Below, piece by piece: positions 15,738 through 31,284 of a DNA stretch of 64,000 nt. How positions within the stretch are numbered: the first letter of the stretch is position 1; each line of letters starts with the position of its first letter. The notes under the pieces are model-generated. The model saw only the letters and a program-made list of their open reading frames with translations. It made no database searches and was not told the DNA's origin. Source of the stretch: an uncultured Acidobacteriota bacterium (lineage in GTDB: Bacteria; Acidobacteriota; Terriglobia; Terriglobales; Acidobacteriaceae); the NCBI GenBank assembly GCA_963755795.1, contig CAVWLI010000017.1, positions 25,262 through 89,261 of the forward strand. The letters are read 5' to 3'. Made by a program: the position numbers and the translations under genes.

Positions 15738-16173
15738 GCTAACTTGACGCGTGTTTCCAATCGCGAGCTTTCACGATACAGGGCTGGACCGAATCCGATT
15801 CCGTAGGCCTAACCACGGCGTCGAATCCAACATCGCCCAGCCCTGCCGGTCCCCCGCATTCCGATATCCCGCTGGGAAGCGGAACTCGTCATGCGGCGGA
15901 AAAACGAAGTGCAGGCGCAGATACACGTCACAGCCTGTGGTGCATGCACAAGTCTTGCCAAAAACAACATGCGCATGCAACGACTGAGTTCTCTTTGCTT
16001 TCAGTCGCTTATCTCGCGTCAGTGAAAGCCCCTGCCAGCGCAGAAGAGCCGCATCGGTGAATTCCCCCGCCCTGAAGGAGTGTTTTGACCCTGTCCCCAC
16101 ACGCTGGCTCAATCGTTCGTCATTGAATCAGCCCATGAGCTCCAGCAGGGCAGGCTGCCTCCGGCTTTCAGCC

Positions 16174-18135
16174 TTACTTGATCCGCCCCTTGACTGGGTG
16201 CTGGCCAGACTCAGTGACCGATCCATTCGCATTATGCGCCGTGTTGTGGCACATCAACGTACAAGTGTTGGTGGCGTGGTTGTAGGCGATCGGACTGGCG
16301 CCGTTCTGCCCCACCACATTGCCGTCAAAGTTCACCAGCCGCTCGCCGGTGAAGGTCGGGGAATTGGCGCCCATACCGTGAGCGGTGTGGCATACGCTGC
16401 AGCTGAATCCGTATTGCGAAACGTGCAGGCTGTGCTGGACGAAGCTAGTGTTGGCGAGGATCTGGGTCAGGCTGTGACATTTTCCGCACAGTGCAAACGG
16501 TCCATCCACACTGGTATCAGGATTTGGATAAAGATTCGTAACTAGCTGTCCCGGCGCGGGAGCCTGGCTGAATTCGTAGCGCCGCTCCAGCAGGTGACTC
16601 CACTTCGACCCATGCGGACCGTTGGGGCCCGTGCCGCCGAATTCGCGATTGTCGTCGCTGTTATGGCAATCGGTGCAGAAGATCTGGCTGCCCACCAACC
16701 GCGGGGAAGCCAGGCCAGCCTCAGTCAACATATTCACCAGCAGGCTGGGCTGCGGCAGCGGAGACGTGCTCACGTGGGTTACCGGATGGCTCGAGGTCGC
16801 CGTCGACGCGAATTCCTGCATCACGTTCAGCGGGTCCGGCGCTGCAACTACGCGAATGGCTGGATAGCCGAAGATCGGCAGCCGCTGCTTGCCCATGCTG
16901 CTGCCGTGACAACGCAGACAGGTTTCATATTGATTCACCGCCGGAATCACCGGGGTTATGCCGTCAAGCGCGCTGATTCCGGTCGCGCCCTGCTGCGGAG
17001 GCCGAATCGCTGGCGGTGCCGAAAACGTCACTTCCGCATTGGACGCGTGCGCACTGTGGCAGTCCACGCAGGTGGCGTGGCGATTGTGGTTCAGCAGCGG
17101 AGCCTCGGCGGCGTCGTGGAAATTTACTCCCACCGGCAGCGGGTGGCTGATTTTCGTCTCTTCACTCATGATGTTAGGAGCCGCCGGCGATACATACGTT
17201 CCGCCCGCGTGACAGGTCATGCAGTTCTGCGTAACCGGATCATAGGAAGGAGCCGCCGGCGTGGCTGGACGCAACAACCGGGCGGGCGCAACTGAATTAT
17301 GCGACATGTGACACGAGGTGCAGGCATTCACTCCCACGGTCGGATAAGAGCCGACGTGGCCATCGGGTGAAACCTGATTGGTGGCCGTCTGATGTACGCT
17401 ATTGATGAAGCCGGCGAGTGGATTGATTTGTCCCTGCATCACTCGGTTGGGATCGTGACAGGCGAGGCACATCTGCCCGTTCGAACTGTCTCGTATCAGA
17501 AAATTCTGAGCGATTTTGTCGATCGCCTGAATGTGCGCCGAGTGACAGCTGGTACATTCGATATTTCCGTTGACCAGCTTCACCGCGCCCGTGGGATCGG
17601 CAGTCTTGCCCTGCGACGCCAGCGACGCCACCAGGTTCGCTGCGTCTTTAATCGGCAGCACCAGACTGAACGGATGCGAGCCGGTCAGCGTGGTGCCGAA
17701 CGAATCCGCCGCATTCATCGATCCGACCACCGGCAACGGCCCGTATGCCGCCGATTGTCCGACAGCCACCGTGCCGTCATGACAACTCAAACACAGGTTG
17801 CTCGTTCCTCCCAGCGTGGGTTGCGTGGCCTGAGTGTTTTCGGTCGAACTGGTATACGGCACATACGAACTCTGCGACAACTTCTGGTTCCATAGCGGAG
17901 TAATGCCCCCGATTCCGCTGTGCGGAGCGTGGCAGAACGTGCAACCCAGGCCGCCCTGCGAATACACCGCCGCGCCACTCGATACCGACAGGTTGTGCAT
18001 CCCCAGCACATCCGTGGTAGGCGGAGGCGTCGTTTGGGCAAAGCTCTGGGTGATCAAACTCTGCGTTATCAAAATCTGGGTCACCAGAAATTGGGCTACC
18101 AGGAAAGCGCAGGCAACTGACGGGCGAGTCTTCAC
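16174..18135 (-). CDS. Secreted multihaem c-type cytochrome (11 CxxCH + 1 CxxxCH)
   Basis: ORF 16174..18342. The start is placed at GTG 18135, which overlaps the TGA of the upstream NHL gene (GTGA). Signal peptide VKTRPSVACAFLVAQFLVTQILITQSLITQSFA-QT. Haem motifs are CTFCH, CLSCH, CTSCH, CLACH, CTSCH, CMTCH, CVDCH, CLRCH, CTDCH, CGKCH, CSVCH and CTLMCH. Confidence 0.9.
   Translation of the reverse strand: MKTRPSVACAFLVAQFLVTQILITQSLITQSFAQTTPPPTTDVLGMHNLSVSSGAAVYSQGGLGCTFCHAPHSGIGGITPLWNQKLSQSSYVPYTSSTENTQATQPTLGGTSNLCLSCHDGTVAVGQSAAYGPLPVVGSMNAADSFGTTLTGSHPFSLVLPIKDAANLVASLASQGKTADPTGAVKLVNGNIECTSCHSAHIQAIDKIAQNFLIRDSSNGQMCLACHDPNRVMQGQINPLAGFINSVHQTATNQVSPDGHVGSYPTVGVNACTSCHMSHNSVAPARLLRPATPAAPSYDPVTQNCMTCHAGGTYVSPAAPNIMSEETKISHPLPVGVNFHDAAEAPLLNHNRHATCVDCHSAHASNAEVTFSAPPAIRPPQQGATGISALDGITPVIPAVNQYETCLRCHGSSMGKQRLPIFGYPAIRVVAAPDPLNVMQEFASTATSSHPVTHVSTSPLPQPSLLVNMLTEAGLASPRLVGSQIFCTDCHNSDDNREFGGTGPNGPHGSKWSHLLERRYEFSQAPAPGQLVTNLYPNPDTSVDGPFALCGKCHSLTQILANTSFVQHSLHVSQYGFSCSVCHTAHGMGANSPTFTGERLVNFDGNVVGQNGASPIAYNHATNTCTLMCHNTAHNANGSVTESGQHPVKGRIK
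18046..18105 (-). repeat. Four tandem 15-bp units encoding FLVAQ-FLVTQ-ILITQ-SLITQ within the cytochrome signal peptide
   Basis: Plus-strand units are ctgggtgatcaaact / ctgcgttatcaaaat / ctgggtcaccagaaa / ttgggctaccaggaa. Coordinates were checked by codon arithmetic. Confidence 0.9.
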
Positions 18136-19259
18136 GGTTGTTTCCCCCCGTCCGTTGCAGCTGCGATTCCGTAGTAATGAAACACTTCCACGCGCCGGTT
18201 GAAGGAATCGACCACGTAGATGCGATCGTGCGCGTCGATCTGCAGTCCGGCCGGCAATTGAAACTGTCCCGCTCCAGTTCCCTTTCCGCCGAAGTAATAC
18301 AACAACCGCCCCTGTTCGTCGAAGACCTGCACGATGCTCCACTCGCCGTCGGCAACGTAGAGATGCCCTTCGGAATCAAATCCGATTCCTTTCGGCCGAA
18401 ACATCCATCCCACGCCATCGCCGATCCTTCCGACGGCGTAGCGGAACGTGCCCGCCCGGTCAAAAACCTGCACGCGGAAATTCATGGAGTCGACCACCGC
18501 CAGATCCGTTCCATGCAGCCGCAACTCGGTGGGATAGTTGAACTCGCCTTCGGCGGTGCCCGTCTTTCCAATGGTCTGCAGCACGCTGCCCTGCATGTCC
18601 ATGACGAAAATCTTGTTGCGCAGAGTATCCGTCACGTAAATGCGCTGGGCCGTCGAATCGACCGCAATTCCCGTGGGACGCTTGAAATATCCTTCGCCGC
18701 CCTTCAGGCTTCCAATCACACGGCGATACTTGCCGCTGGGGTCAAAGACAAAAACTTTTCCCGCCAGAGAATCGGTCACATAAATATTGTCCTGTGCATC
18801 CACGGCTACGCACTGCGGCGTGTACATGGGATCTTTCCCCACATCCCGCCGCGAGAGGAACTTGTACTTCTGCTGCACTAAATCGAAAATGTGCACGCCC
18901 CCCGCCGCCAGGTCGGTCACGAGGATGCGCCCGTGCGAATCGGTAACCACGCTGTAGGGGCCAACCAGGTAATGGAAGTCGGGCTGGCCCGCGATCACAT
19001 CCACCACTCGGGTCCAGAAGCTGCGCTTGGGATTGACTTCGCGTTCCAGGCTGAAGCTGCGTTCGAACGAGAGTTTCCGTCCGCCGTCCATCAGCAAATC
19101 GGGCGCCGTCGGCTGCACTTTTTCCTTGCGACTCTTCGCGGTGCGCGCTTGCGCTGGCAAAATCGCCAGCGTCATGGCCAGCAACATCGCCAGTCCGGCA
19201 ACGATCCGGCCCGTGCGCCACGCTGACCTGCGTCGTTGCCCTAGAAGAAGTCGAACCAT
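18132..19259 (-). CDS. NHL-repeat six-bladed beta-propeller protein, secreted
   Basis: Six blades: ILVTDLAAGGVHIFD, IYVTDSLAGKVFVFD, IYVTDTLRNKIFVMD, LAVVDSMNFRVQVFD, LYVADGEWSIVQVFD and IYVVDSFNRRVEVF. Signal/anchor segment IVAGLAMLLAMTLAILPAQA. The ATG at 19259 lies 19 nt inside the 3' end of the barrel gene. Confidence 0.9.
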   Translation of the reverse strand: MVRLLLGQRRRSAWRTGRIVAGLAMLLAMTLAILPAQARTAKSRKEKVQPTAPDLLMDGGRKLSFERSFSLEREVNPKRSFWTRVVDVIAGQPDFHYLVGPYSVVTDSHGRILVTDLAAGGVHIFDLVQQKYKFLSRRDVGKDPMYTPQCVAVDAQDNIYVTDSLAGKVFVFDPSGKYRRVIGSLKGGEGYFKRPTGIAVDSTAQRIYVTDTLRNKIFVMDMQGSVLQTIGKTGTAEGEFNYPTELRLHGTDLAVVDSMNFRVQVFDRAGTFRYAVGRIGDGVGWMFRPKGIGFDSEGHLYVADGEWSIVQVFDEQGRLLYYFGGKGTGAGQFQLPAGLQIDAHDRIYVVDSFNRRVEVFHYYGIAAATDGGKQP

Positions 19260-21091
19260 CGGGTTATTCCAGCAAAGTAAGAGGTAGTATTGGCCGGCGC
19301 TCCCGCCGCGCTGATGCCCTGCGTGAAGCGCGTGTAGCCGGCCTGTACGCCGATCCTGCGTAGATGGTACTGCAATTGGGCGTTGAAGATTTCCGTATTG
19401 TTGTGCGAGACAGTAGAACCCAAAGTGTTGCTGATGGCCCGGGTGAAGCTGCCCGCAATGACCAGTCGCCGGACCAGGTTCGCCGAGATTCCCCCACCGT
19501 AGCTCGATCCGCCAAAAGTGACAAAGTCGCTCACACCCGGCGTTGCAGAAACCGGCACCAATCCACCAGCACCCAGGAGTGATATCCCGGTCGACTGCGT
19601 GTAGTCGCCCGTGAGCGTGAACTTGCGCGATCCCAAGGCCGTCGAATAGGCCTGGCTGCTGCTGTTGGTGCCCTGGTAGTTGGTCAGCCCGCTGTGATTG
19701 CCGTTAAAGGCCGCCGTCCAGTTTAGTCCGGCGGGCAAACGGCGGCGCACGTTCGCGCTGTAGTTGTAGTACGAAGTCGTGTACGTCACCAGCAGAGACT
19801 GCACGTTCTGGGCATAGCTGAATACGCCCGAGGTTTGCCAGCCCGCGAAGCGGTGAAAGAAATTCACGTTGCCGATGAAACCCACCGAATTCGTGCCCTG
19901 GCCGTTGCTGCTGTCGATCACCGAACCAGAAAAGGTGAACATGTCGAAAATCCGTTTTCCGTAGTTCACCGTTCCACTCAGGTAAGTACCCGTGTAAGTC
20001 TTTCCGAAATATTCCTGGTCGTAATACGTCGCTTGTGACGACACCCCCAGATTGTTCGTGATCTGGTAGTTCGCGCCTCCCCCGAGGGTCGAGGAGTGCG
20101 CGCCCGATCCCAGGTTGATTCCCGGTACGATGGTTCCACTGGGGCTCAGGCTCTGCGCCAGGTACCCGTTCAGATTGCTGGTGTAATTCTCGGTGACGTT
20201 CAGCGAGAGTTTCTGCGTGGGGTGAAAGGTGGCGCCGGTGTTGACGATGTCATCGGTGTAGTGCGACGCATCGGAATTCTGCCCCGTGCTCGAGAAGTAG
20301 TTGCTGTCGGCGGATGACCGGTCGAAATTCGCAAAAAACTGGCCGCTCAGAGGCAAGGCGTGCTGCACTCCGAGTCCCACGTCATTTCCTGTCGAATCCT
20401 GCACTGACTCCGACTGTCCTGCCAGAAACTCAGGGAACTTAGAGTTCAAGCTGTTGCGGTCGTAGAAGCTATTCAGACGAAATCCCGCGATTTGGTAGCC
20501 CGAGCGCACGTTAAACAGCCGTGTGCTCGAAGTCGTTTCCTCGTTTGTGCCGTAAATCGTGCCGCTGCCTCCGCCCTGCGAATACCCCACCGTGAGAGTC
20601 GGCAGGTCCGGTACCAATGCGCTCCAATTGATCGCGAATCCCTCGCCCTTTCCCACGGTCGTGAAGTTGGGCTGTCCGGCCACTCCAAAAGTCCCGGTGC
20701 TATTGCGGTCGTAGCGATAGCTCACCGATCCCGGAAAATGGCTGCCCGAGAAGAAGTTCGCAGTCCCGTTGATTCCGGTCGCGCCGGTCAGCGATTGATA
20801 GGTCGAGTCGTCGCGCGATTGGTTGTAGTAGGGCTGAGCCGTGAACGACAAGAAATTAGGGTTGTAGTAGTAGCCCGAGATCTTGCCGTCGATTCCCCCG
20901 GTCAATCCGTGGTCCGAGGAAATGTCGTTGCCATAATCGCCGCTGTAGCCGAAGCTAAACAGGCCGCCGGCCGTCAGCCTGGTGTTTTCGCCGATGCGAA
21001 GTTCAGGAGTTTGCGATTGCGGCTGCTGCCCGCAGACGAGTTGCGCCATCATCAGCACCGCGAGTCCGAGGATGACATTCCTGCCCTGCAT
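19241..21091 (-). CDS. Predicted outer-membrane beta-barrel (porin-like), ~590 aa mature
   Basis: ORF 19241..21169 with a likely ATG at 21091 (MQGRNVILGLAVLMMAQLVCGQQ signal peptide). The sequence is very G/S/T/Y/N-rich with alternating hydrophobic pattern and almost no Cys. The C-terminus ...GITRWFDFF has a terminal Phe, a typical OMP beta-signal. Confidence 0.7.
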   Translation of the reverse strand: MQGRNVILGLAVLMMAQLVCGQQPQSQTPELRIGENTRLTAGGLFSFGYSGDYGNDISSDHGLTGGIDGKISGYYYNPNFLSFTAQPYYNQSRDDSTYQSLTGATGINGTANFFSGSHFPGSVSYRYDRNSTGTFGVAGQPNFTTVGKGEGFAINWSALVPDLPTLTVGYSQGGGSGTIYGTNEETTSSTRLFNVRSGYQIAGFRLNSFYDRNSLNSKFPEFLAGQSESVQDSTGNDVGLGVQHALPLSGQFFANFDRSSADSNYFSSTGQNSDASHYTDDIVNTGATFHPTQKLSLNVTENYTSNLNGYLAQSLSPSGTIVPGINLGSGAHSSTLGGGANYQITNNLGVSSQATYYDQEYFGKTYTGTYLSGTVNYGKRIFDMFTFSGSVIDSSNGQGTNSVGFIGNVNFFHRFAGWQTSGVFSYAQNVQSLLVTYTTSYYNYSANVRRRLPAGLNWTAAFNGNHSGLTNYQGTNSSSQAYSTALGSRKFTLTGDYTQSTGISLLGAGGLVPVSATPGVSDFVTFGGSSYGGGISANLVRRLVIAGSFTRAISNTLGSTVSHNNTEIFNAQLQYHLRRIGVQAGYTRFTQGISAAGAPANTTSYFAGITRWFDFF

Positions 21092-21347
21092 TTTCGCCGC
21101 TACCCTTCTGGCCAGAGGCTCAGAAAACCCGCTTGCACTTACTGGTTGAGGAGGCACAACAGTTGCCAAACTCGCGGCGAATGAGGACTTTCCAATCTGT
21201 TGAAAACAATATCGTTACGCCTTCATTAGGAGGGAGGGTTTGAGCTGAAATTCGCGCCGGTGCGGCATATCACCCGGCTTGCGAGTTGAAATCCACAACC
21301 GCCCGAACAGCGCCGCTGTCGTCCAAAACCAAAGACCTGTACAAAGC

Positions 21348-21388
21348 GAAGGACCTGTGCAATCGGCGGAAGATTGCACAGGTCCTTC
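21348..21388 (-). terminator. Strong hairpin (16-bp perfect stem, 9-nt loop) 28 nt after the PPIase stop
   Basis: GAAGGACCTGTGCAAT-cggcggaag-ATTGCACAGGTCCTTC read directly. On the minus strand it is followed by a partly T-rich tract (GCTTTGTACAGGTCTTTGGTTTTGG). Confidence 0.55.
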
Positions 21389-21415
21389 GTTTCTCTCAGC
21401 ATCACAAAACGCTGA

Positions 21416-22438
21416 TTAGACTTCCTCAATCCTAGCCTTTGCCCGTAATTGCTTCGCCAGGCCAGACCGCAGTTTGTCGTACTTGCTCTTCTGCAAATTC
21501 GTTTTCAGATCGTTCTTGACCTCGGCGAACGGGCGTTTGCGCGACGGAGTAAATGCAGTCGCCCGCACGATGGTGAATGCGGTTTCAATCTGGATCAGCC
21601 CGCTCACGCCGCCCGGCCCGGCTGCCCGCAAAGCTTTAACCACCTGCGGCGGCAACTTGTCGGCCGTCACAACTTTGTGGTCACCCATGTTCACCCGGAA
21701 ATCATCCTCGGAGATCTTCTCCGCCAGCAATCCAAATTGCTCGTAGGTCTTGGCGGCCTTCGCCTGCACCAACGCCGCTTCCGCCCGCTTTCTGGCATCT
21801 TTTTCCTGATCCGGCGTCGCCTTCAGCGGAGGAACGATGGAGATGCTCTGGAACCCGAAAGACTCCGGCTGCTGGAATTGCCCCGGATTCTTGGCGTAAT
21901 ACGCCTGAAGCTCGGCCAACGAAACCGCCGACTTATCTTCCACATCGGTTTTCAGAACCTGCTCAATCAGCAGCGAGCGCTTCATCTGTTGCCGCAGTTT
22001 TTGCTCGGAACCCTGCATCTCAGTCTGCAGGTATTGCTGGTATTGGTCCGGACTCTTAAACTGGCCGCGAAATTCGGTCGCGGCGTGATTCAGCTTTTCG
22101 GGCGAAACTGTCAGCTTCCGCCGCACCGCTTCCTGATACACCAGTTCCTCGAAAATAATCATCTCCAGCGCACCTTGCCGGATCTCCGCTTCCTGCGCTT
22201 TGGGAAAGCCGTTGTGCTGTTGCGCGTAGGGAAAGATGGTGTACATCTCGCGCAGCAGATCCCGATCGGTCAACACGGCACCGTTAACCCTGGCAACCGG
22301 CTTCTCACTCGCCTGCAAGGTTGAGGTCTGGGCAGACGCGGTGTTTGTGAGCACGGTCGGCGTATGCGAAGCCACTTGGGCTGATGCCGCCGAGAGTGCC
22401 AGTGCCAGAAATCCGCAGATGGAGAGTTGGTATTTCAT
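21416..22438 (-). CDS. Periplasmic SurA/PpiD/PrsA-like chaperone with PpiC (parvulin)-type PPIase region
   Basis: Signal peptide MKYQLSICGFLALALSAASAQ. It has a SurA-N-like helical domain (ARVNGAVLTDRDLLREM...) and the long coiled helical middle typical of this family. The parvulin call is from overall similarity, not a strict motif. Confidence 0.8.
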   Translation of the reverse strand: MKYQLSICGFLALALSAASAQVASHTPTVLTNTASAQTSTLQASEKPVARVNGAVLTDRDLLREMYTIFPYAQQHNGFPKAQEAEIRQGALEMIIFEELVYQEAVRRKLTVSPEKLNHAATEFRGQFKSPDQYQQYLQTEMQGSEQKLRQQMKRSLLIEQVLKTDVEDKSAVSLAELQAYYAKNPGQFQQPESFGFQSISIVPPLKATPDQEKDARKRAEAALVQAKAAKTYEQFGLLAEKISEDDFRVNMGDHKVVTADKLPPQVVKALRAAGPGGVSGLIQIETAFTIVRATAFTPSRKRPFAEVKNDLKTNLQKSKYDKLRSGLAKQLRAKARIEEV

Positions 22439-22545
22439 ATTGCCTCGCTCGGTTCCTCGCTTGCTAACTTCTACTCACCTCGTGACCGGCTCGAATAAAA
22501 AAGGGGAGAGTCGATCCTCTCCCCTTCTTGCACATCATCCAACGT

Positions 22546-23457
22546 CTACTGGAAGACCGTCGTGATGTTGTTGGTGTTGTTGGCTTCGTTCGACTCGCCA
22601 AAGTGGCACTGGCGGCAGAACTGCGTGGTCGAAGGAGCATTGGTATTGGCCACGTTGTTGATGTTCGGGTTGTAGGGGCCGTTCACGAAGAAATAGGTGG
22701 CGTAATAGCCGGTCGCATTTCCCGCGATCGGGCTGGCTGCGCTGGCCGTATAGACAGTCATCACGTGCTGGTTGTGGCAAGTGGTGCAGAGCACGTAGGG
22801 AGCATTTGTGGCGGTGAGACCATAGGGCTTAGACCATTTCCCAGGCGCCAGTGCTGGCCAGCCATAGTTGGCTACGAACTGAGCATACGGGGAGCCGGGG
22901 GTTACTGTCAGTGCGCCAGCAGTGTTCACCAAGCCGCTGCCAGTGCTGATGATCGCCAACTGGCCCACCGGGTGGTCGTTGGTGTAGTTGCCGCCCGTCG
23001 TGCCGTCGTTGCCGAGCAGGGTGGGGATCTTACCGGTTCCGTACGAGGTATTCGTCAGCAGGCCGATCCGCTGTTCGTACGATTGGTTGACCATCATGTT
23101 GCTGGCCGTGACGTTGCCGTCATGGCAGCTCAGGCAGAGCAGGATGCCGCCAACTTCTTGCGACCCAGTCGAGATGCTGGCAGGCAGAACTTCGGTATAT
23201 TTCCCGCCATCGCCGAATGCGATCGTCTTGCTGTACAGGGGGCTGGCGTCCTGTCCCCACAATGCATAGCTACCAGTATCAGCGGCGCCGGCGTGGCCGG
23301 AACCGAAAGAGCCGCTGTGCGGTGCGTGACATCCAGCGCAGCCGCGGCCGTTATTATTGTGGGCGCCCAGTACGTCAACCGGCGATGACCAGTTCTGCGC
23401 CATCGCGAAGCTCCCGACCGCCAGAACGAACAGTGCAACTAAAAGCGCTTTCTTCAT
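22546..23457 (-). CDS. Secreted tetrahaem c-type cytochrome with low haem density
   Basis: ORF 22546..23493 with a likely ATG at 23457 (MKKALLVALFVLAVGSFAMAQ). Haem motifs are CAGCHAPH, CLSCHDG, CTTCHNQH and CRQCHFG. The long spacers are G/S/T/N/A-rich. Confidence 0.85.
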   Translation of the reverse strand: MKKALLVALFVLAVGSFAMAQNWSSPVDVLGAHNNNGRGCAGCHAPHSGSFGSGHAGAADTGSYALWGQDASPLYSKTIAFGDGGKYTEVLPASISTGSQEVGGILLCLSCHDGNVTASNMMVNQSYEQRIGLLTNTSYGTGKIPTLLGNDGTTGGNYTNDHPVGQLAIISTGSGLVNTAGALTVTPGSPYAQFVANYGWPALAPGKWSKPYGLTATNAPYVLCTTCHNQHVMTVYTASAASPIAGNATGYYATYFFVNGPYNPNINNVANTNAPSTTQFCRQCHFGESNEANNTNNITTVFQ

Positions 23458-23897
23458 AAAATTCCACGACCTCCATGAAAAATGTTTTGCCACTTCTTAA
23501 TAAACTCTCAGAGGCTTAGGCCGTGGGCTGCGTCTTGTGCCTGGGCACTCGGCGTAGCCGCCTCTCAGCTTCTGTTAGTGCAACTGGCCGCCCGAAACCC
23601 CAGGCCGCCGGCGATTTCCTTGAATCTCTTGTAAATTATTGAATTAACTAATCTTAAGCTCGAGGCACCCGACAGCAGATCTCTGGAAAACTCCTCAACA
23701 CTGGGGGAAAACAACCACTTGGCGGCCCCGCTTGGTCAAATTACCCAGTTGTAAGAAACCGCAACAGAGCTGTTGCAAAACTCAGCAGCCGACCGCGCGC
23801 TATCCGTGCATCAAGAATCGGTGTGAGGAATTTTCTTGCGTTGCCGCCGGCAGAGACGGAGCAACCACGTCCTCGACGGATGGGATCTTCATCTCGG

Positions 23898-25160
23898 CTA
23901 CTTGCTGGGCGGGACTTTGGCTTCCGGCGCTGCGGGCGGCGACAGTGGGACAACCTCTTTGTTGCCCGCCGCTTTCTTGGCCCGCTGCTCTTCTTTGTCC
24001 TTGCGCGCCTGCTCAGCCTCGGCGTCGGTCACGTAGCGGAATTGTTGCACGCGTCCGGGATAGATTTCCGAGGTGAAGACGCGGTTGTTCTTATCGGTCG
24101 CAATATTCACGATCCCCTGAAACTGGCCCGGCAGCAGGCCGTGGCCACCGAATGAAATCAGCAGATGCGCGTCCTGGTTGTAGACCTGCACCCGGTCCTG
24201 CACGCCGTCGGCAACCCAGATGTGGTTATCACTGTCGATCGCGACCCCTTTGGGCCGCGAGAAGTATCCCGGGCCATCGCCCGCCTTGCCGAACGTGCTG
24301 ATGAATTTTCCGTCGGCGTCAAAGATTTCTACGCGGTTGTTCAGCGTATCGCAGACATAGAGGTTGCCTTCTGCATCGACCGCCAGTCCGGACGGCCTGG
24401 CGAAATCTCCAGGACTGGTGAGCTCATGGTGGTGTCCGGTGGTGCCGATCTTGCGCAGCAGTTTGAGTGAGTCGGCGTCATACACCAGCACCTGATCAAG
24501 CTCGATGTCGGACACATAAAGCAGCCGGTTCTCGCGATCGATGGCCAGCGAGCCGGGTTCGACCAGTCCCTCAGTGATCACATCCTCCGCAACATGGGCG
24601 GGGTTGAAGACCAGAACATGGCGCAAGCCAGGGTCGGACACGAACAGACGATCGTTGTCGTCCATGGCCAGCCCGATGATGCGGACGAAGTGGGCGTGCG
24701 CCTTGTTCTTGATCATGTCAAGATCGTGCGTCTCGGTGTTGAAAATAAAGATGGCGCCGACCTTCTGATCCGCGATGTATAGGTTGTTCTTGGAATCGAC
24801 TGCGAGGCCGTAGGGCTCGGCCAGTTGGTACAACACCTTTGCTTCGCTCTGTGGCTGCGTGCCCGCCAGGCGGTCCATCCATTTCGCTTTTTTGCTGTCG
24901 TTCCCCGCCTCGACCTGCGAGATCTTTTCCGCCGCAAAGAATCCCGTGTAGCGAATGCGCGCAATGGCCGGAGGATTCGGCCACACAATGTTCGAATAAT
25001 CAATGACGGGAACCTTCTTGGCCGTGTCCGTCTTCTTTTTGCCGGCAAATGCGGAGATGGGCGCCAGCAGAGCCAGGCCGACCATAAGACACACGACAAG
25101 TCGCGGGCGACGGTCGGCTGAGCCCGCGCTGATGGCAGACATGCTTTTCATTTTCCTCAT
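23898..25160 (-). CDS. NHL-repeat beta-propeller protein, secreted, with K/P/A/E-rich C-terminal tail
   Basis: ORF 23898..25229. The ATG at 25160 is preceded by GGAGAA. Signal peptide LVVCLMVGLALLAPISAFA. Blades are LYIADQKVGAIFIFN, LFVSDPGLRHVLVFN, LYVSDIELDQVLVYD, LYVCDTLNNRVEIFD, IWVADGVQDRVQVYN and VFTSEIYPGRVQQF. Tail sequence: EAEQARKDKEEQRAKKAAGNKEVVPLSPPAAPEAKVPPSK. Confidence 0.85.
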   Translation of the reverse strand: MRKMKSMSAISAGSADRRPRLVVCLMVGLALLAPISAFAGKKKTDTAKKVPVIDYSNIVWPNPPAIARIRYTGFFAAEKISQVEAGNDSKKAKWMDRLAGTQPQSEAKVLYQLAEPYGLAVDSKNNLYIADQKVGAIFIFNTETHDLDMIKNKAHAHFVRIIGLAMDDNDRLFVSDPGLRHVLVFNPAHVAEDVITEGLVEPGSLAIDRENRLLYVSDIELDQVLVYDADSLKLLRKIGTTGHHHELTSPGDFARPSGLAVDAEGNLYVCDTLNNRVEIFDADGKFISTFGKAGDGPGYFSRPKGVAIDSDNHIWVADGVQDRVQVYNQDAHLLISFGGHGLLPGQFQGIVNIATDKNNRVFTSEIYPGRVQQFRYVTDAEAEQARKDKEEQRAKKAAGNKEVVPLSPPAAPEAKVPPSK

Positions 25161-25229
25161 CTTCGTTCTCCTGGTTCTCCTGCGACGTCTCTCATGCGAA
25201 CTTTCTCCCCGCAAACTTCCTGGTTGCAA

Positions 25230-26672
25230 CTATCGCTTCGTCAGATCCTTGTGACAGCTGGCGCAGAATTGCGCGTTGTTCACCTGGTCCTTCGCCAGCA
25301 GGTCGGGCTGCGCCGAGGAATGCGGCTGATGGCAGGATAGGCAGTCGATCTTCGCGATTATCTTGGTGACGTTCGAGGGATCAACTACATCGGAGATGGG
25401 GTGGCCTGCGATCGGATGCCCGCGCCCGAACTTTATGGGCAGCACCACGACTTTATTCTTGGTGAAGTAATCCTCTGGCAGCCGCACGGTTCCGTTGAAA
25501 ATCGTGAGCAGGTGCTCGGCTTCGAGCTTTTTCGGCTCCGCGTCAGGGCCGTGACATTCCAGACACAGTCCGTTCGTACTCTTGCTGCGCAGCAAGTGAT
25601 CGTTGTCGCCGCCGTGGGGCTCGTGGCAGGTGGCGCATCCCTGCTTGAACGCGGGCTGATGCAGAAAGTGTTTCTTGCCCTGCTCGGCCTGGTCGCTGTG
25701 GCAGGTCAGGCAGATGTCAACTGCATTAGTCCTGGGCAGGCCGGGCTGGCGGCTGGCATGCGGATTATGGCAGTCAGTGCACTCTCCGGCCGCGCCGGGA
25801 TGCGGCACTCTCGCCTTTTCAATGTTCTCTGCCACGTCGCTATGGCAGGTGACGCAGATCGACTTCACGTCGGCTTGCACGAGGACTACTTTGCCGTCCT
25901 TGGCCGGCGCGTGGCACGTGTCACAAGATTTCTCGGCGAACGGAGGATGCAGGAACTGCCGCATTAGCTTGGGGACGGCCGACTGATGCGGATCGTGGCA
26001 ACTGGTGCAATCCGCGGTGGCGAAAGGCTGGTTGTGATGCGCCTTCTGCAGGCTCGCGTCTTTGACGTCGTGGCAATCAACGCACAGCGCCGGAGCGGCC
26101 TTGGTCAAATGAAAATCAAACTCGGGTTTACCCACTTCTCCGGTCTTGTGGGTGATGTGGCAGGTGTCACAGCCCATATCGAGCGCAGCATGGCGGCTGC
26201 CTTTTTCCGGAACGTTCAACCCCTGGGTGTGGCACTCGAGACAAAGATTCTGGCTTTTGTCGCCCGACTCAGGCTTCAGCAACTGATTCTTGTTGTCGCT
26301 GGTATGCGGGTCGTGACACTTAATGCAGTCGCGCACGGCCGGAGGATGCACCGTCCCTTTTAGAGTGGAAGCGTCTTTGTCGGCGTGGCAGGTTAGACAA
26401 AGCGCCTGCGGAGTCGAGGTGATCAGCTTGATCCGCGTGACGTCTTTATTGACCCGAACTTCATGACAGCTGAGGCAGCCGGTGGCAATCGCCGAATGCA
26501 CCGCCTTGCCCTTCGTCTTATCCTCGTGGCACTCGAGACACTTCGCCGAATCCACATTCTTGTCGAGCGGAACCGGATGTTCCTTGGCCCATGCTGGCAT
26601 TGCTGCAATCACGAAGAAGAATGCCAGCCAAGAGAAACGGGGGAGGGCTGCGATGCTTGCGTTCCGGCTCAT
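25230..26672 (-). CDS. Periplasmic/secreted 16-haem c-type cytochrome (c3/c7-like modular)
   Basis: ORF 25230..26741 with a likely ATG at 26672 (MSRNASIAALPRFSWLAFFFVIAAMPAWA). I counted 16 canonical CxxCH motifs in ~450 mature residues, many as CxxCHDPH/CxxCHxxH. Confidence 0.9.
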   Translation of the reverse strand: MSRNASIAALPRFSWLAFFFVIAAMPAWAKEHPVPLDKNVDSAKCLECHEDKTKGKAVHSAIATGCLSCHEVRVNKDVTRIKLITSTPQALCLTCHADKDASTLKGTVHPPAVRDCIKCHDPHTSDNKNQLLKPESGDKSQNLCLECHTQGLNVPEKGSRHAALDMGCDTCHITHKTGEVGKPEFDFHLTKAAPALCVDCHDVKDASLQKAHHNQPFATADCTSCHDPHQSAVPKLMRQFLHPPFAEKSCDTCHAPAKDGKVVLVQADVKSICVTCHSDVAENIEKARVPHPGAAGECTDCHNPHASRQPGLPRTNAVDICLTCHSDQAEQGKKHFLHQPAFKQGCATCHEPHGGDNDHLLRSKSTNGLCLECHGPDAEPKKLEAEHLLTIFNGTVRLPEDYFTKNKVVVLPIKFGRGHPIAGHPISDVVDPSNVTKIIAKIDCLSCHQPHSSAQPDLLAKDQVNNAQFCASCHKDLTKR

Positions 26673-26941
26673 AGAAGTACGATTTTGAAATACTGGGACC
26701 ATTGCCAACCGTTGCACTTGCACGATCCTCGCCTTCCGCACTCGAAAGCACCGCAGATTTTTACCGGGCTGTAAATTATTGCAACAATTCGTCTTCCAAT
26801 CTATTGCGTGACCGGAGAAGATTCTGCTGAGCCGGACTGAACGTTTCCAAAATGGGCCTTCTGCCTCACTCAGTCGGTGAAATCACGCACGCTTCTGTTG
26901 CGCGGTGAAGCCAAGTGGTTCCGCCTTATTTTGCAGCCATT

Positions 26942-26957
26942 TGTGATTGAAATCACA
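26942..26957. promoter_or_regulatory. Perfect CRP/FNR-family palindrome TGTGA-TTGAAA-TCACA
   Basis: Read directly and checked by codon arithmetic from 26877. It lies in the divergent intergenic region, 178 nt upstream of the ccsB ATG (27135) and 270 nt upstream of the 16-haem cytochrome ATG (26672). It also fits the FNR form TTGAT-N4-ATCAA with one mismatch per half-site. Confidence 0.45.
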
Positions 26958-27134
26958 CGCTTTCCCCTGTGGGTGAAATCGCAGCAAACCCTTGCAAGAA
27001 TGAGTGTTATGGCTCACGCGAGCCGCTCGACCGACCCCCTCTTTCAGACTCACTCCGTTGATAACACACGACTTCAAGGCAAATCCCAACGTTGGCGCGG
27101 AACGTGCATTGCTCCAAGTGAGAAGAGGAACGTC

Positions 27135-28607
27135 ATGCCACTGTCACTGCTCGCGGCGCCCCGAAAAATCTGGCAGACCCTCAGTTCCATCAAAACCGGA
27201 GTCGTTCTCATTATTCTGGTCGTCATCTTTTCGGCGGCGGGCACAGTTATTTTGCAACGTCCCATGACCGACGCCGACGATATGGAGCGCGCTTATTCGC
27301 CGTCGATGCTGCGCTTTCTCGACGCCACCGGCCTCACCGACGTTTTTCACACCCGCTGGTTCGTAGCTCTGTTAATTCTGGTGTGCTTCAGCATCATCGC
27401 CGCCTCGGTGCAGCGCTTCCCCAACGCCTGGCGATATTTCGCGCGTCCTTATAAGAGTCCCGACGAAAACTTCCGCAAAGCTCTGCCCATGCAGGCCCAG
27501 TTTGCGCTCGCCCGTAACGACGAAGAACTCGGACTGAGCGCCGCCGAACGCGCCTTCAAGCACCTTGGACTAAAAACAGAGCGCATCGTACGCACCAACA
27601 GTTTCTCGCTGTTCTCGGAGCGCAGCCGCATCTCCGAGATGGCGGTCTACATCGTTCATGCCAGCCTGCTTCTGATCTTTACCGGCTTCATCGTGGACTC
27701 GCTCTATGGCTGGCGCGGATTCCTGATGCTGACTCCAGGAACCGCCAGCAACCAGATCGAAATGAAAAACGGCTCGCTGCGGACGATTCCCTTCTCCATC
27801 CGCTGCGACGGAACCGGCGAGGAAACCTATGCCGACGGCACGCCCAAGAAATATTGGTCGAAGCTCGCGGTGGTGGACGGCGGACAAGAAATTTCCCGCA
27901 AAGAAATCGTGGTCAACGATCCGCTGGTCTATCACGGGCTCCGTTTCTATCAGGCCAGTTACGGCCGCACCGGCAAGCTCGATCAACTGATCCTTGACGC
28001 GACTCCAGCCAACAACGTCGCCAGCACTCCGCAGCAAATTTCTCTCGCCATGAACCAGACCGTGCCGCTCGACCCCGACACCACCGTGCAACTGGTGGAG
28101 TTCATCCCCGATTTCGTGGTGGAGGACGGCCGGGTCTTCACCCGCAGCAAAGACATTGTGAATCCCGCGGTTCACATCATCGTGACTTCAAAGAAAGCGA
28201 ATAGCAGCGTGAATGTATGGCTGCCTCCCATGCCGGGCATCGACGAGAACGCATCCTCCCCCTACACCTTCGACCCGAAAGACTTGAAGACCGGTGTCTA
28301 CACGGGACTGCAGGTTTCGCACGAACCCGGCCAGTGGGCGGTGTGGGCCGGAGTCGTGCTCATGGCCATCGGCCTGACCTTTGTTTTCTATGTGGTTCAC
28401 ATGCGCTTCTGGGTTGTCCCGGTACGCGACGCGCAGGGCGGCACGGTGCTGTGGGTTGGCGGCACGGCCAACCGCAATCGCGACGCCTTCGAAATGAAGT
28501 TCAAAACTGTGGTCGAGCAGATTCAGAAAGAACTCAAGCCCGCAATGGCCTCGGCTGCGCCGCCGGATGTAGCAACGATCTCTAGAACAACCATCGCCGG
28601 ACGCTGA
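27135..28607 (+). CDS. ccsB: Cytochrome c biogenesis protein ResB/CcsB (System II)
   Basis: ORF 26877..28607. The ATG at 27135 is preceded by AGAGGAA. N-terminus KIWQTLSSIKTGVVLIILVVIFSAAGTVILQRP, a large periplasmic loop and a C-terminal TM segment. It is followed 22 bp later by ccsA. Confidence 0.88.
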   Translation: MPLSLLAAPRKIWQTLSSIKTGVVLIILVVIFSAAGTVILQRPMTDADDMERAYSPSMLRFLDATGLTDVFHTRWFVALLILVCFSIIAASVQRFPNAWRYFARPYKSPDENFRKALPMQAQFALARNDEELGLSAAERAFKHLGLKTERIVRTNSFSLFSERSRISEMAVYIVHASLLLIFTGFIVDSLYGWRGFLMLTPGTASNQIEMKNGSLRTIPFSIRCDGTGEETYADGTPKKYWSKLAVVDGGQEISRKEIVVNDPLVYHGLRFYQASYGRTGKLDQLILDATPANNVASTPQQISLAMNQTVPLDPDTTVQLVEFIPDFVVEDGRVFTRSKDIVNPAVHIIVTSKKANSSVNVWLPPMPGIDENASSPYTFDPKDLKTGVYTGLQVSHEPGQWAVWAGVVLMAIGLTFVFYVVHMRFWVVPVRDAQGGTVLWVGGTANRNRDAFEMKFKTVVEQIQKELKPAMASAAPPDVATISRTTIAGR

Positions 28608-28628
28608 GTCCGGCAACGGAGGAAATGT

Positions 28629-30026
28629 ATGGCACGCGCAAACGTTGAACAGCATCCCGCGACCGGAACCACCATGATCGTGATGGTGGGGTTGGGAATG
28701 GCTTTCCTGCTGTTCATGGCTTTTCTGAATGTGGCGAAGAGCGGAAATATTCTGAGTGAAGCCAACTTCTTATTTGCCGCCCTGGTTTTCTACTCGGGCG
28801 CGGGAGCGTTATATCTGGGCTTTGGCGTAACCGGGACTGAATCCTACATCAAGTACGCTTCCCTCATGACCTGGGCAGGCCTGCTGGCCAACACCGCGGC
28901 CGTTGCCCATCGCTGGTACGAAGCCGGACATCCTCCGTTCGCCAGCATCTATGAAATGCTGCTGAGTTTTGTGTGGACTTTAGCTGCGCTCACCCTGATC
29001 GCGGAAAAACGCTATGGCGTGAAAGTCATTGGCACGGTCACCATGCCGGTTGCGATTGTCGGCGTCATCCTGATGCAGCTTCTGCCTAGCGAAGTTCGCC
29101 CGCTGGTTCCGGCACTTCAATCCACTTGGCTGCACGTCCACGTGACCCTGGCCATGCTGGCCTATGCAGCGTGTGCGCTGAGCTTTGCGCTGGCCATGAT
29201 GTTCCTGATCCAGGACAAGGTGAAGACGGAACTGTTTCTGGCCGCCACCAGCATATTCACGGTCGGAATTTATGGCGCGGTCCTCACCCGTTTCGAAAAA
29301 TGGGGCGGCCTCAACGTAATCGCATGGAACGCTCAAAATAAAGCAGAAGTGTTCGTCTCGCGCGGCGTCAGGCTCTTCGTCACGATTCCCGACCTCGGCT
29401 GGCTGATGCTTCTGGTCTTCGCCGCTGTGCTGGCTCCGCTGGTACTCTTCGCCCTTTCGCGAATCAAGAAGAATGCAGCCCTGCTGGCGGTGGCCGATCG
29501 CGCAGTCTTCGTCAGCATTCTGCTGCAAATCCTGGCCCTGGCATTTTTCCTGGTGCGCGTGCGCGGCGGACAATATCCCTCCCTCGATGCCGACGGCTTG
29601 TACGCCACGAGTCTGGCGGCAAGCCCGTTCATTCTCTCCGCGCTGGTGGGCGGTATCTTCGCCAATCTTCTCTATCTCCTATTGCTCTGGCGGCGCGCCG
29701 ATCTCGAACGCCTTCTCCCCGACGCCGACACGCTCGACCGCATCACTTACAAAACAATTTGCATTGCCTTCCCCCTACTCACCCTGATGATCGCCGCCGG
29801 CGCCTACTGGGCTAACCGGGCCTGGGGCTCCTATTGGAATTGGGATCCTAAAGAGACGTGGGCGGCGATTACTTGGCTGGTCTATGCCGGCTATCTGCAC
29901 ATGCGCATCACTCGCGGCTGGCGCGGACGCCGTGCCGCCTACTTCGCCATCCTGGGATTCGCGGTGGTGATGTTCACCTTCTTCGGCGTCACTTATTTAT
30001 TGCCTGGATTGCATGCGTATGCCTGA
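28629..30026 (+). CDS. ccsA: Cytochrome c-type biogenesis protein CcsA (haem handling, WWD motif)
   Basis: Polytopic protein. It carries the W-rich motif WGSYWNWDPKETWAAITWLVYAGYLH and conserved His residues. Confidence 0.9.
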   Translation: MARANVEQHPATGTTMIVMVGLGMAFLLFMAFLNVAKSGNILSEANFLFAALVFYSGAGALYLGFGVTGTESYIKYASLMTWAGLLANTAAVAHRWYEAGHPPFASIYEMLLSFVWTLAALTLIAEKRYGVKVIGTVTMPVAIVGVILMQLLPSEVRPLVPALQSTWLHVHVTLAMLAYAACALSFALAMMFLIQDKVKTELFLAATSIFTVGIYGAVLTRFEKWGGLNVIAWNAQNKAEVFVSRGVRLFVTIPDLGWLMLLVFAAVLAPLVLFALSRIKKNAALLAVADRAVFVSILLQILALAFFLVRVRGGQYPSLDADGLYATSLAASPFILSALVGGIFANLLYLLLLWRRADLERLLPDADTLDRITYKTICIAFPLLTLMIAAGAYWANRAWGSYWNWDPKETWAAITWLVYAGYLHMRITRGWRGRRAAYFAILGFAVVMFTFFGVTYLLPGLHAYA

Positions 30027-31284
30027 GACTATGACGCCACCACTGGATCGGCATATTCCGGCTGAAGAGGTCCCCGCCGCTTCGCGCTTCCGTACCGGCT
30101 TTTTCAGTACGGCGTATTCGAGTGCAGCTGCGCTGGCCAACCCGATTTCAACCGGAGCCGATGATCGTGCGAAGGCCCCTGCGGCAGAGGATCCCGAGTC
30201 GCCCTGGCTAAGCATCACATGGGAGATCAAGGCGCTGGTTCCGATCGCCTGCGTGCTCCTCGGCGGAATGTTGCTGTTTCTTCTCGCCACGCTCTCCTGG
30301 CGCGATCCCGAACGTCATCTCGTGCTCCTGGTCGCAGGTTCAGGAGCAGTCGCGATTTGCGGCGCACTGCTGGTCGTGCTCACCTACACCGTGCAGCGCC
30401 CAATGGTCGAACTGCAGCAGAAAATCGCGCAACTCGGCGGTGGCGATCTGAACGTAGCCGTCAGTTTTTCTCACCGCAATGACGAGATCGGTGACCTCGG
30501 CCGCAACTTCAACCAGATGGTGGTGCAACTGCGCGAAAGCCGCGCCGAAATTGAACGCCTGCACCGCACCCAAATGTCGCGCGCCGAGCATCTGGCCACT
30601 CTCGGAGAAATGGCCACCGGACTGGCCCACGAAATCCGCAACCCCTTGGCGGGGATTGCCGGCGTCATTGAAATCATTGGCCGCGACTTGCCGTCAACCA
30701 GCCCGGCGCGCGCCGTGGTCAAAGACGTTCGCCAGGAAATTGCCCGCATCAATCACATCGTCACCGACCTGCTGCAAACTGCGCGGCCGCATCCGCCCAC
30801 CGTCCGCAAGAGCGATTTGAATACCACCGTCGAACATGCCGTCATGCTCGGCCGCCAGCAGGCAATGGCAAAGTCTGTTGAGATCGAACTACACAAAAAC
30901 TCCACCCTGCCCGAAGTGGAGCATGACGGCGATCAGATTCACCAAGTGCTGCTCAACCTGCTACTCAATGCACTGCAGGCTCTCGATTCTTCAGCGAGCG
31001 GCCATACTGGAAAGATTACGGTCACTGTCAGGCACCAGGGAAACGCCGCAGTCGTCGAAGTTTCCGACAATGGTCGCGGCATCGCCCCCGATCATCTACC
31101 CAACATCTTCCGCCCCTTCTACACCACCAAAGGCGACGGCACCGGCCTGGGATTGTCGTTGGCCCGCCGCATCGTCGAAGACCATCACGGCCGCATCGAC
31201 GTCTCCAGCACCCTCGGCAAAGGCACTACCTTCGCTGTCGTGCTCCCGTTGCAGAGAGCTGCGGTGCCAACCTCCGGCTCTTAG
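30013..31284 (+). CDS. Sensor histidine kinase (2 TM, HAMP, HisKA, HATPase_c)
   Basis: It overlaps the ccsA 3' end by 14 nt. HAMP region (GGDLNVAVSFSHRNDEIGDLGRNFNQMV), H-box LAHEIRNPL, N-box LLNLLLNALQA, G-boxes DNGRGI and GTGLGLS. The start could be one of several nearby ATGs. Confidence 0.85.
   Translation: MRMPETMTPPLDRHIPAEEVPAASRFRTGFFSTAYSSAAALANPISTGADDRAKAPAAEDPESPWLSITWEIKALVPIACVLLGGMLLFLLATLSWRDPERHLVLLVAGSGAVAICGALLVVLTYTVQRPMVELQQKIAQLGGGDLNVAVSFSHRNDEIGDLGRNFNQMVVQLRESRAEIERLHRTQMSRAEHLATLGEMATGLAHEIRNPLAGIAGVIEIIGRDLPSTSPARAVVKDVRQEIARINHIVTDLLQTARPHPPTVRKSDLNTTVEHAVMLGRQQAMAKSVEIELHKNSTLPEVEHDGDQIHQVLLNLLLNALQALDSSASGHTGKITVTVRHQGNAAVVEVSDNGRGIAPDHLPNIFRPFYTTKGDGTGLGLSLARRIVEDHHGRIDVSSTLGKGTTFAVVLPLQRAAVPTSGS

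Follow-up and report, generated by a model that had tools for sequence, protein, structure and literature searches.

A predicted OmcE/UetA-type tetrahaem cytochrome in a conserved multihaem gene cluster of peat and soil Acidobacteriota

The window analysed in this work, a 64,000-nt stretch of DNA from an uncultured member of the Acidobacteriota, carries at positions 22546–23457 of the minus strand a gene for a secreted cytochrome of 303 aa with four haem motifs, here called the tetrahaem. All coordinates are positions in the window, and the genes of the cluster in which the tetrahaem lies are on the minus strand (-) unless stated otherwise. Profile comparisons place the protein in the OmcE family as a divergent, enlarged member, and we regard it as probable, although some way from secure, that it is an extracellular OmcE/UetA-type subunit that polymerises. 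The presence in an acidobacterial cluster of this enlarged and remodelled, but by sequence bona fide, OmcE/UetA homologue is new, as are the conserved leader and terminator signals on its gene and the linking of EET1, Uet and OmcE as one type of system, for which three literatures have named related parts differently. Already known were the structures of OmcE nanowires, the bioinformatic description of Uet and the three neighbouring genes, described as EET1 in 2026. The tetrahaem itself was probably overlooked earlier because of its low haem density.

The open reading frame (ORF) runs from an ATG to a TAG stop codon, with the sequence GGAGG (23470–23474) located 12 nt ahead of the ATG, and the same 303-aa product is called in the public annotation of the source contig (ENA ERZ25039548 contig_41103). 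Residues 1–20 form a cleavable signal peptide of Sec/SPI type without lipobox (MKKALLVALFVLAVGSFAMA, cleaved ahead of a Q). The mature protein contains four haem motifs, all encoded on (-): CAGCH (aa 40–44, 23326–23340), which is followed by a conserved A-P-H47 and is the counterpart of OmcE CVFCHTPH; CLSCH (aa 108–112, 23122–23136), inside an invariant LCLSCHDG common to OmcE; CTTCH (aa 224–228, 22774–22788), which is followed by N-Q-H231 and is the counterpart of OmcE CSSCHDVH; and CRQCH (aa 281–285, 22603–22617), in a family-specific QFCRQCHxGxSNE. In the 35 diverse relatives from which the family profile was built, with identity reaching down to 33%, the four CxxCH motifs are conserved together with exactly four more histidines (H33, H47, H162 and H231), so that the eight family-conserved histidines are H33, H44, H47, H112, H162, H228, H231 and H285. 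The window copy has a ninth, H55, which is variable among the 35 relatives.

The first-pass annotation of the window, made by a model from the sequence alone, had described the protein as low in haem density and as rich in G/S/T/N/A and poor in charged residues, and both descriptions hold. In the mature protein of 283 residues there is one haem per 70.8 residues; the ratio is one per 28.2 in the neighbouring 16-haem cytochrome and one per 49–52 in the two OmcE proteins of solved structure. The G/S/T/N/A content is 52%, compared to 29% in the 16-haem neighbour and 48–53% in the solved extracellular OmcE proteins, and the D/E/K/R content is 7.1%, compared to 23.7% and 10–14%, respectively. In composition, then, the tetrahaem resembles the solved OmcE proteins, unlike its presumed periplasmic neighbour.

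The homology to OmcE was documented at several levels. In a single-sequence phmmer search against all PDB sequences, the sole significant match was 9yuq_N (E 7e-6); 9YUQ is the OmcE nanowire of Desulfuromonas soudanensis WTL, formed by DSOUD_2954 (Petersen et al., bioRxiv 10.1101/2025.10.22.684050). With the family profile, 9yuq was matched at E 1.2e-11 and the OmcE of G. sulfurreducens, 7tfs_A, at E 8e-5, with no other significant match in PDB. An hhalign comparison of the tetrahaem family with the OmcE family gave a probability of 99.3% and E 3.9e-20 over the N-terminal 143 columns, and residues 170–303 aligned colinearly (93.7%, E 1.8e-7) with the OmcE domain of cyt12, a multihaem cytochrome encoded in the same cluster, over its haem 3 (CxxCHxxH), FL/FFV motif and haem 4. 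The OmcE family keeps the same set of four CxxCH motifs and four distal histidines in identical order, H...CxxCHxxH...CxxCH...(D)HP...CxxCHxxH...CxxCH, and the motifs CxxCH(T/A)PH, (P/A)LW, LCLSCHDG, NDHP(I/V)G and CxxCHxxH are common to both.

The first-pass annotation had labelled the protein as OmcS-like and had pointed to the tetrahaem filaments of archaea. OmcS and OmcE do have the H...CxxCHxxH coordination pattern in common (PMC9473688), and in the literature OmcS and the archaeal filaments PcECN and AvECN show OmcE-type haem stacking and inter-subunit His ligation; the tetrahaem differs from all three in that no sequence similarity was detected, neither OmcS nor PcECN and AvECN being matched among the PDB sequences at E <= 10 with phmmer or at E <= 1 with the family profile. 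Both comparisons had therefore to be given up, and the actual homologue is OmcE. The underlying proposal of a candidate extracellular or filament subunit fared better, the only significant PDB matches being subunits of two OmcE nanowires and the neighbourhood of the gene matching those of omcE and uet clusters.

In the order of transcription, the cluster on (-) comprises a 16-haem DmsE/paired-CXXCH cytochrome, presumed periplasmic (25230–26741); an NHL beta-propeller, NHL_A, assigned by a library domain match (23898–25229); the tetrahaem; a SurA-like peptidyl-prolyl isomerase (PPIase) with Pfam matches to SurA_N_3 and Rotamase_2 (21416–22438); a 616-aa outer-membrane beta-barrel with a signal peptide and an invariant C-terminus WFDFF (19241–21091); a second NHL beta-propeller, NHL_B, the gene of which overlaps the barrel gene by 19 nt (18132–19259); and cyt12, with 11 CxxCH motifs and one CxxxxCH (16174–18135). 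Divergent from these genes, on (+), lie ResB (26877–28607) and CcsA (28629–30026) of system II cytochrome c maturation. The 616-aa protein has zero Pfam matches. Its AlphaFold2 (AF2) model, computed with database homologues (pLDDT 59), is all-beta with about 28 long strands, and each of the 58 proteins that Foldseek matched to it at E <= 0.001 is a large outer-membrane barrel, MtrB ranking second; the modelled protein thus looks like a large outer-membrane barrel, the TM-scores of 0.2–0.3 being too low for any finer class.

This arrangement recalls the minimal omcE cluster of Desulfuromonadia, in which two multihaem cytochromes, two propeller lipoproteins, OmcE and a large barrel are encoded beside resB/ccsB (Petersen et al.). 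As in that cluster, a secreted tetrahaem gene follows an NHL propeller, precedes a large barrel, is trailed by a terminator and lies close to resB/ccsB, with further propellers and multihaem cytochromes in the neighbourhood. Three of the neighbours could also be matched by sequence to an omcE locus of the Geothermobacteraceae, L001: NHL_A aligned with the propeller preceding omcE (29% identity, E 1e-38), the N-terminal non-repeat region included, NHL_B with the other propeller (E 3e-47) and the 16-haem cytochrome with the large cytochrome (E 2e-35). The differences are that the tetrahaem has 283 mature residues against about 200, with longer linkers ahead of haem 3 (from the DHP histidine) and from there to haem 4, that the window has a PPIase and a UetJ-like cytochrome, and that the window propellers are without lipobox. 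The lipobox Cys is absent from the signal peptides of both window propellers and present in the propellers of L001 and of the uet-type locus L112; propeller anchoring may on this account differ in Acidobacteriota.

A closer match to the window cluster than the minimal omcE cluster is the uetABCDEFGHIJ-ccsAB cluster of 'Ca. Tenderia electrophaga' and Gallionella, in which UetA is an extracellular tetrahaem cytochrome, UetB a PPIase, UetC a 28-strand barrel, UetH/I NHL proteins and UetJ an extracellular undecahaem cytochrome. When compared by published gene order, the two agree in the succession of tetrahaem, PPIase and approximately 28-strand barrel, followed further on by NHL and an undecahaem-type cytochrome, with the system II genes adjacent; the window PPIase, barrel, NHL_B and cyt12 occupy the positions of UetB, UetC, UetH/I and UetJ. 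The window differs in having no trihaem c7 proteins UetD/E/G and no cupredoxin UetF between 19241 and 18132, in having a 16-haem DmsE-like cytochrome and a second propeller upstream, and in the physiology to be expected, electron uptake by an aerobic autotroph having been proposed for Uet, whereas the organisms here are peat and soil organotrophs. For sequence comparison we used the metagenome locus L112, a recognisable uet cluster with tetrahaem, PPIase, barrel, small three-CxxCH ORFs (four listed, two of them overlapping), a 331-aa haem-free ORF and two NHL genes; the window tetrahaem matched its UetA-position protein at E 2e-5 and the window PPIase its UetB-position protein at E 9e-12.

A third description concerns the Acidobacteriota themselves. 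EET1 was defined there as a three-gene porin-NHL-cytochrome core, transcribed through deep peat, with a 13-haem protein that matches 7tfs by fold at TM 0.70 (Fiorito et al., bioRxiv 10.64898/2026.05.27.727921). Judged on architecture and lineage, the adjacent barrel, NHL_B and cyt12 genes of the window correspond to this core, which comes from the same Terriglobales/UBA7540 lineages and habitats. In contrast to the window cluster, the accessible portions of the preprint text and supplement mention no tetrahaem, PPIase, upstream propeller or 16-haem protein, and the low haem density of the tetrahaem would give it a low rank in the screen of Fiorito et al.

Related arrangements were found among the 80 omcE-type metagenome loci that were recovered with an OmcE query and served as a comparison set, L112 being one of them. 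Many of them are ordered omcE-like gene, PPIase, barrel (approximately 590–690 aa, F-terminal), NHL and 11-haem cytochrome; in at least 8 of the 80, from other phyla, a PPIase homologue directly follows the omcE-like gene, and in the canonical clusters of other phyla an ordinary OmcE stands at the position of the tetrahaem beside the 11-haem protein. A pair made of an omcE-like tetrahaem gene and a SurA-like PPIase gene alone was seen in a complete chromosome of a metagenome-assembled genome (MAG), OY970205.1 (locus L053:10001–12016), and also in locus L024; in the former, barrel, propeller and multihaem genes are absent within 10 kb either side and the next gene is HypF-like. The occurrence of the pair without these genes nearby hints at a coupling of tetrahaem and PPIase, and suggests either that the PPIase is functionally tied to the tetrahaem and not to the barrel, or that the L053 pair is a second copy of the subunit gene.

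The cyt12 cytochrome deserves separate treatment, because its N-terminal part is itself related to OmcE. We set its start codon so as to take in the signal peptide, the public gene call starting later; the N-terminal ~200 residues of the mature protein then make up a complete OmcE domain, which is followed by a 7–8-haem extension. The alignment of the cyt12 family with the OmcE family (hhalign probability 100%, E 1.9e-54, 200 columns) takes in the four haem motifs, the four distal histidines and the FLxxxNxxSxLCxxCH ending, so that this domain is more canonical than the tetrahaem (E 1.9e-54 vs 3.9e-20). The first-pass annotation had noted a module shared by the tetrahaem and a 12-haem neighbour; the sharing was borne out by BLASTP over three haem motifs (E 1e-8) and by profile-profile comparison (99.3%, E 6e-21), and the module is conserved in relatives, whereas the haem count has to be restated as eleven CxxCH motifs plus the one CxxxxCH. 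Over its full length cyt12 is homologous to the 11-haem proteins of omcE-type loci (30–34% identity, E 1e-52 to 4e-72). In several of these loci (L133, L134, L159 and L103) what the OmcE query had matched is the N-terminal part of an 11-haem protein of approximately 560–650 aa rather than a separate tetrahaem, from which it appears that the UetJ-like fusion of an OmcE domain with a multihaem part is widespread outside Acidobacteriota.

The tetrahaem gene is also set apart from its neighbours by conserved signals at both ends. Its upstream intergenic region measures 440 bp (23458–23897), as the first-pass annotation had pointed out, and 390–630 bp in most relatives. Within it, approximately 30 nt upstream of the Shine-Dalgarno sequence, a three-tier 5′ leader hairpin of ~64 nt was identified at 23505–23568 (-). 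On the raw MAFFT leader alignment RNAalifold returned 4 pairs only, and the structure of 17 pairs emerged after anchoring on the conserved GGCCTAAGCC block; 94.8% of its cells are paired, against 30–41% in slid controls, compensatory changes occur in 7 of the 17 pairs, and the observed values were reached by 0 of 500 shuffles. In some lineages the inner hairpin is deleted and the outer helices are retained. Rfam gave no match across window positions 15000–31000, the leader hairpin included. The leader RNA could act as an mRNA stabiliser or as a regulatory element.

At the other end of the gene, 22 nt past the stop codon and ahead of the PPIase gene, lies an intrinsic terminator, GGGGAGAG-GATCGA-CTCTCCCC-TTTTTT, at 22496–22524 (-), terminators being taken as hairpins of <= -10 kcal/mol followed by at least 5 T. 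Of 77 acidobacterial loci, 67 have it at the equivalent place, with compensatory variation in the stem; in other lineages, the omcE-like gene is followed by a comparable terminator at 16 of the 25 loci compared, that of L001 reaching -26 kcal/mol. About 300 nt upstream of the tetrahaem start there is in addition a conserved palindrome, TGTTGC-N5-GCAACA (~23759–23790 (-)), after which come the conserved blocks CAACTGnGGGATTTCACCA and TGGnTCTTTTCCCCCA, candidate operator or promoter elements; in the window, the palindrome additionally has a weak score as a terminator-like hairpin behind NHL_A. Leader, terminator and palindrome combined suggest that the tetrahaem is transcribed as a separate unit, from which read-through to the PPIase and barrel genes is attenuated, as would be expected for a subunit required in large excess. 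The gene is probably highly expressed, and the independent and possibly high expression that the first-pass annotation had read from the upstream region fits the structured leader and the terminator.

With homology, motif order, synteny and transcription signals documented as above, we infer an extracellular location, polymerisation and a direction of electron flow along the following lines. Haems would be attached by ResB/CcsA, and electrons would cross the periplasm on the 16-haem cytochrome. The ~28-strand barrel, together with the two NHL propellers, would pass a cytochrome through the outer membrane, and the SurA-like isomerase may serve as a chaperone of the tetrahaem or of the barrel. 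The tetrahaem, expressed in excess as a separate transcription unit between its structured leader and its strong terminator, would be exported through or alongside the barrel and would form outside the cell a linear chain of bis-His haems, most likely by head-to-tail polymerisation as in OmcE, with one His ligating the haem of the next subunit. The direction of flow differs between the known systems, OmcE exporting electrons and Uet being proposed to take them up; in organotrophs living in peat, export towards organic matter or iron appears the more natural guess.

By its full N-terminal OmcE domain, cyt12 would be a natural candidate for joining such a chain to the barrel. Since this domain keeps the four distal histidines, it could be linked to the tetrahaem polymer by ligation of the OmcE type, and we put forward tentatively, as a proposal with less than even prospects by a wide measure, that the cluster encodes both wire and socket, in which cyt12, located at the barrel, joins the polymer through the same His-to-haem ligation as between OmcE subunits. 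Under this proposal cyt12 may be the anchor or nucleator of the nanowire, or alternatively its tip, and the SurA-like isomerase a dedicated chaperone of the subunit. If it were true, it would explain the start, the anchoring and the periplasmic wiring of nanowires for the widespread Uet-like clusters of several phyla; Petersen et al. (bioRxiv 10.1101/2025.10.22.684050) treat nanowire start and anchoring as an open question and found no such candidate in the omcE operons of Desulfuromonadia.

Several observations weigh against a polymerising OmcE-type subunit, and polymerisation is the weakest step of the scheme, given the remodelled C-terminal half and a model of the protein that is haem-free only. 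The tetrahaem is 25–29% identical to canonical OmcE members and is longer by ~85 residues, which lie in two linkers, one leading from the DHP histidine to haem 3 and the other joining haems 3 and 4. The canonical OmcE ending FLRxxNxxSxLCxxCHxK, found in 22 of 22 omcE-like ORFs from other loci, is not present; the protein ends instead in QFCRQCHxGxSNE and 13 further aa. Haem motif 4 is followed by an 18-aa tail that canonical OmcE does not have, and the protein exceeds the canonical size of approximately 200–240 aa for the precursor. Single-sequence alignments disagree on which motif of the tetrahaem corresponds to haem 3 or to haem 4 of OmcE, some pairing its third motif with the fourth of OmcE. 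We considered a protein that had lost OmcE haem 3 and gained a new C-terminal haem, and set this possibility aside, as the profile results support a colinear mapping of the haems onto OmcE, which we favour. The number of histidines does not speak for polymerisation, because a monomeric bis-His tetrahaem cytochrome also needs eight.

Structure prediction of the tetrahaem and the homology of the barrel are further weak points. The AlphaFold2 model of the tetrahaem, computed on the 35-sequence alignment and without haems, reached pLDDT 45.9 and pTM 0.35, which puts the fold and the subunit interfaces beyond examination; folds of the OmcE type are, according to the literature, ~80% coil, and Foldseek finds them through close homologues only. 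BLASTP of the window barrel against the barrel of L001, the single omcE locus used for comparison with the Desulfuromonadia type, gave nothing convincing, and a hidden Markov model (HMM) of 59 acidobacterial barrels found 0 matches among 360 ORFs of omcE-type loci, the reverse search giving none either. Against uet-type barrels the acidobacterial barrel profile produced local alignments only, with probabilities of 70–77%, treated as weak because beta-barrels have periodic patterns in common. The window barrel is thus a positional analogue of the omcE-cluster barrel, to which homology is not demonstrable. Finally, identity within the cluster is highest for the tetrahaem gene (70–94%) and lowest for the barrel gene (45–86%), in contrast with the fast-diverging OmcE of the Geobacter type.

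This very high conservation would fit a fixed partner interface, and it counts among the grounds for a reading that we hold to be unlikely on balance, yet to be taken seriously, in which the tetrahaem is a surface cytochrome that does not polymerise and of which one or few copies are docked on cyt12 at the mouth of the barrel, like MtrC/OmcA on MtrAB, to act as terminal reductase or oxidase. The authors of the Uet description proposed a simple UetA–UetJ interaction; the N-terminal module common to the tetrahaem and the OmcE domain of cyt12 is a possible heterodimer interface, and a polymer interface was perhaps lost in the remodelled C-terminal half. On the other hand, the only relatives characterised by experiment, the OmcE proteins, are homopolymers, the conserved terminator and structured leader point to an excess over the partner genes, and in the complete MAG chromosome the tetrahaem–PPIase pair has neither a barrel nor a cyt12 gene within 10 kb either side.

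Much less probable, in our view, is a role of the tetrahaem as a minor subunit, be it initiator, tip or stopper, in a filament or rod that has the 11/12-haem cytochrome as its main electron carrier. Long-distance transfer was suggested by Fiorito et al. for the 13-haem homologue of cyt12, and, as stated, the OmcE domain in cyt12 is the more canonical of the two; moreover, with H55 the window copy has nine histidines, the number that Petersen et al. proposed for a stopper. The leader and terminator, however, belong to the tetrahaem and not to cyt12, and canonical clusters of other phyla place a normal OmcE at the same position alongside the 11-haem protein. As for H55, its variability in the family speaks against the idea, and we rejected it as a stopper signature since it is not conserved among the 35 relatives.

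The first-pass annotation had named a clear best match to a periplasmic family as a finding that would overturn its proposal, and in the curated Pfam and NCBIfam libraries none was found: NapC/NirT and c554 gave zero matches, c3_2 scored 18.7 against a cut-off of 25 bits, c7 18.1 against 24.8 and CctA 20.6 against 180, Pfam Paired_CXXCH_1 matched generically at 26 bits, and the tetrahaem falls in none of the families NapC/NirT, c3, c554 and CctA/STC. Members of NapC/NirT would also be expected to have a membrane anchor at the N-terminus, where the tetrahaem has a cleavable signal peptide. A periplasmic electron shuttle of the STC/CctA, PpcA or cytochrome c3 kind, supplying a porin-cytochrome conduit, is accordingly the least probable of the readings considered, since the Sec signal peptide without lipobox and the weak CctA (E 3.8e-4, over the signal peptide and first haem motif only), c7 and c3 matches that would favour it are met by scores far under the curated cut-offs, by a haem density 2.5x lower and charged residues 3x fewer than in the periplasmic neighbour, by the extracellular location of the homologues of solved structure and by the presence in the cluster of a periplasmic DmsE-like cytochrome of 16 haems already.

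The family is large. More than 4,900 relatives of the tetrahaem were found in the protein database, the best 120 all at least 79% identical, and clustering at 50% gave 378 representative clusters. In a scan of one genome per GTDB species, with a 25-sequence alignment as query, relatives were confirmed at no fewer than 570 of the 599 matched stretches. The best 80 of these 599 stretches, from which acidobacterial synteny was read, are nearly all from uncultured Acidobacteriota (Ca. Sulfotelmatobacter, Ca. Acidoferrum, Terriglobales, Acidoferrales) of peat, bog, palsa and soil, and the seven-gene order with the divergent ResB/CcsA is kept in nearly all of the loci that are sufficiently long. Petersen et al. 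(bioRxiv 10.1101/2025.10.22.684050) reported OmcE homologues in five phyla, Acidobacteriota not among them. A complete cluster of acidobacterial type was observed in two of the best 80 that are labelled Verrucomicrobiia and Ca. Eisenbacteria, where mis-binning or horizontal transfer is possible.

Terriglobia rank among the most abundant and transcriptionally active bacteria of peat and acidic soils, and the tetrahaem is a good candidate for extracellular electron transfer in the abundant Acidobacteria of these habitats. If they do build nanowires of the OmcE type, cytochrome wires would be a mainstream trait of soil bacteria, beyond the Geobacter-like metal reducers, and a concrete molecular route would be at hand for the respiration of particulate organic matter or iron in peat, a respiration that is thought to shift carbon flow away from methane. 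The small size of the tetrahaem, its high conservation and its probably high expression recommend it as a marker gene and make it amenable to heterologous expression and cryo-EM.

Further genes flank the cluster on both sides. After cyt12 lies a gene for a TPR and GDSL/SGNH-hydrolase protein (14007–15737 (-)), syntenic in most acidobacterial loci, and beyond it one for an MBOAT acyltransferase (11981–13432 (+)). The published uet module also has a TPR protein (NrfG) next to ccsAB, and by analogy the TPR protein of the window may be part of the system, with a role in maturation or surface modification. On the opposite side, a HAMP/HisKA/HATPase sensor histidine kinase is encoded at 30013–31284 (+) with a 14-nt overlap with the end of CcsA, and could be a regulator of the cytochrome cluster.

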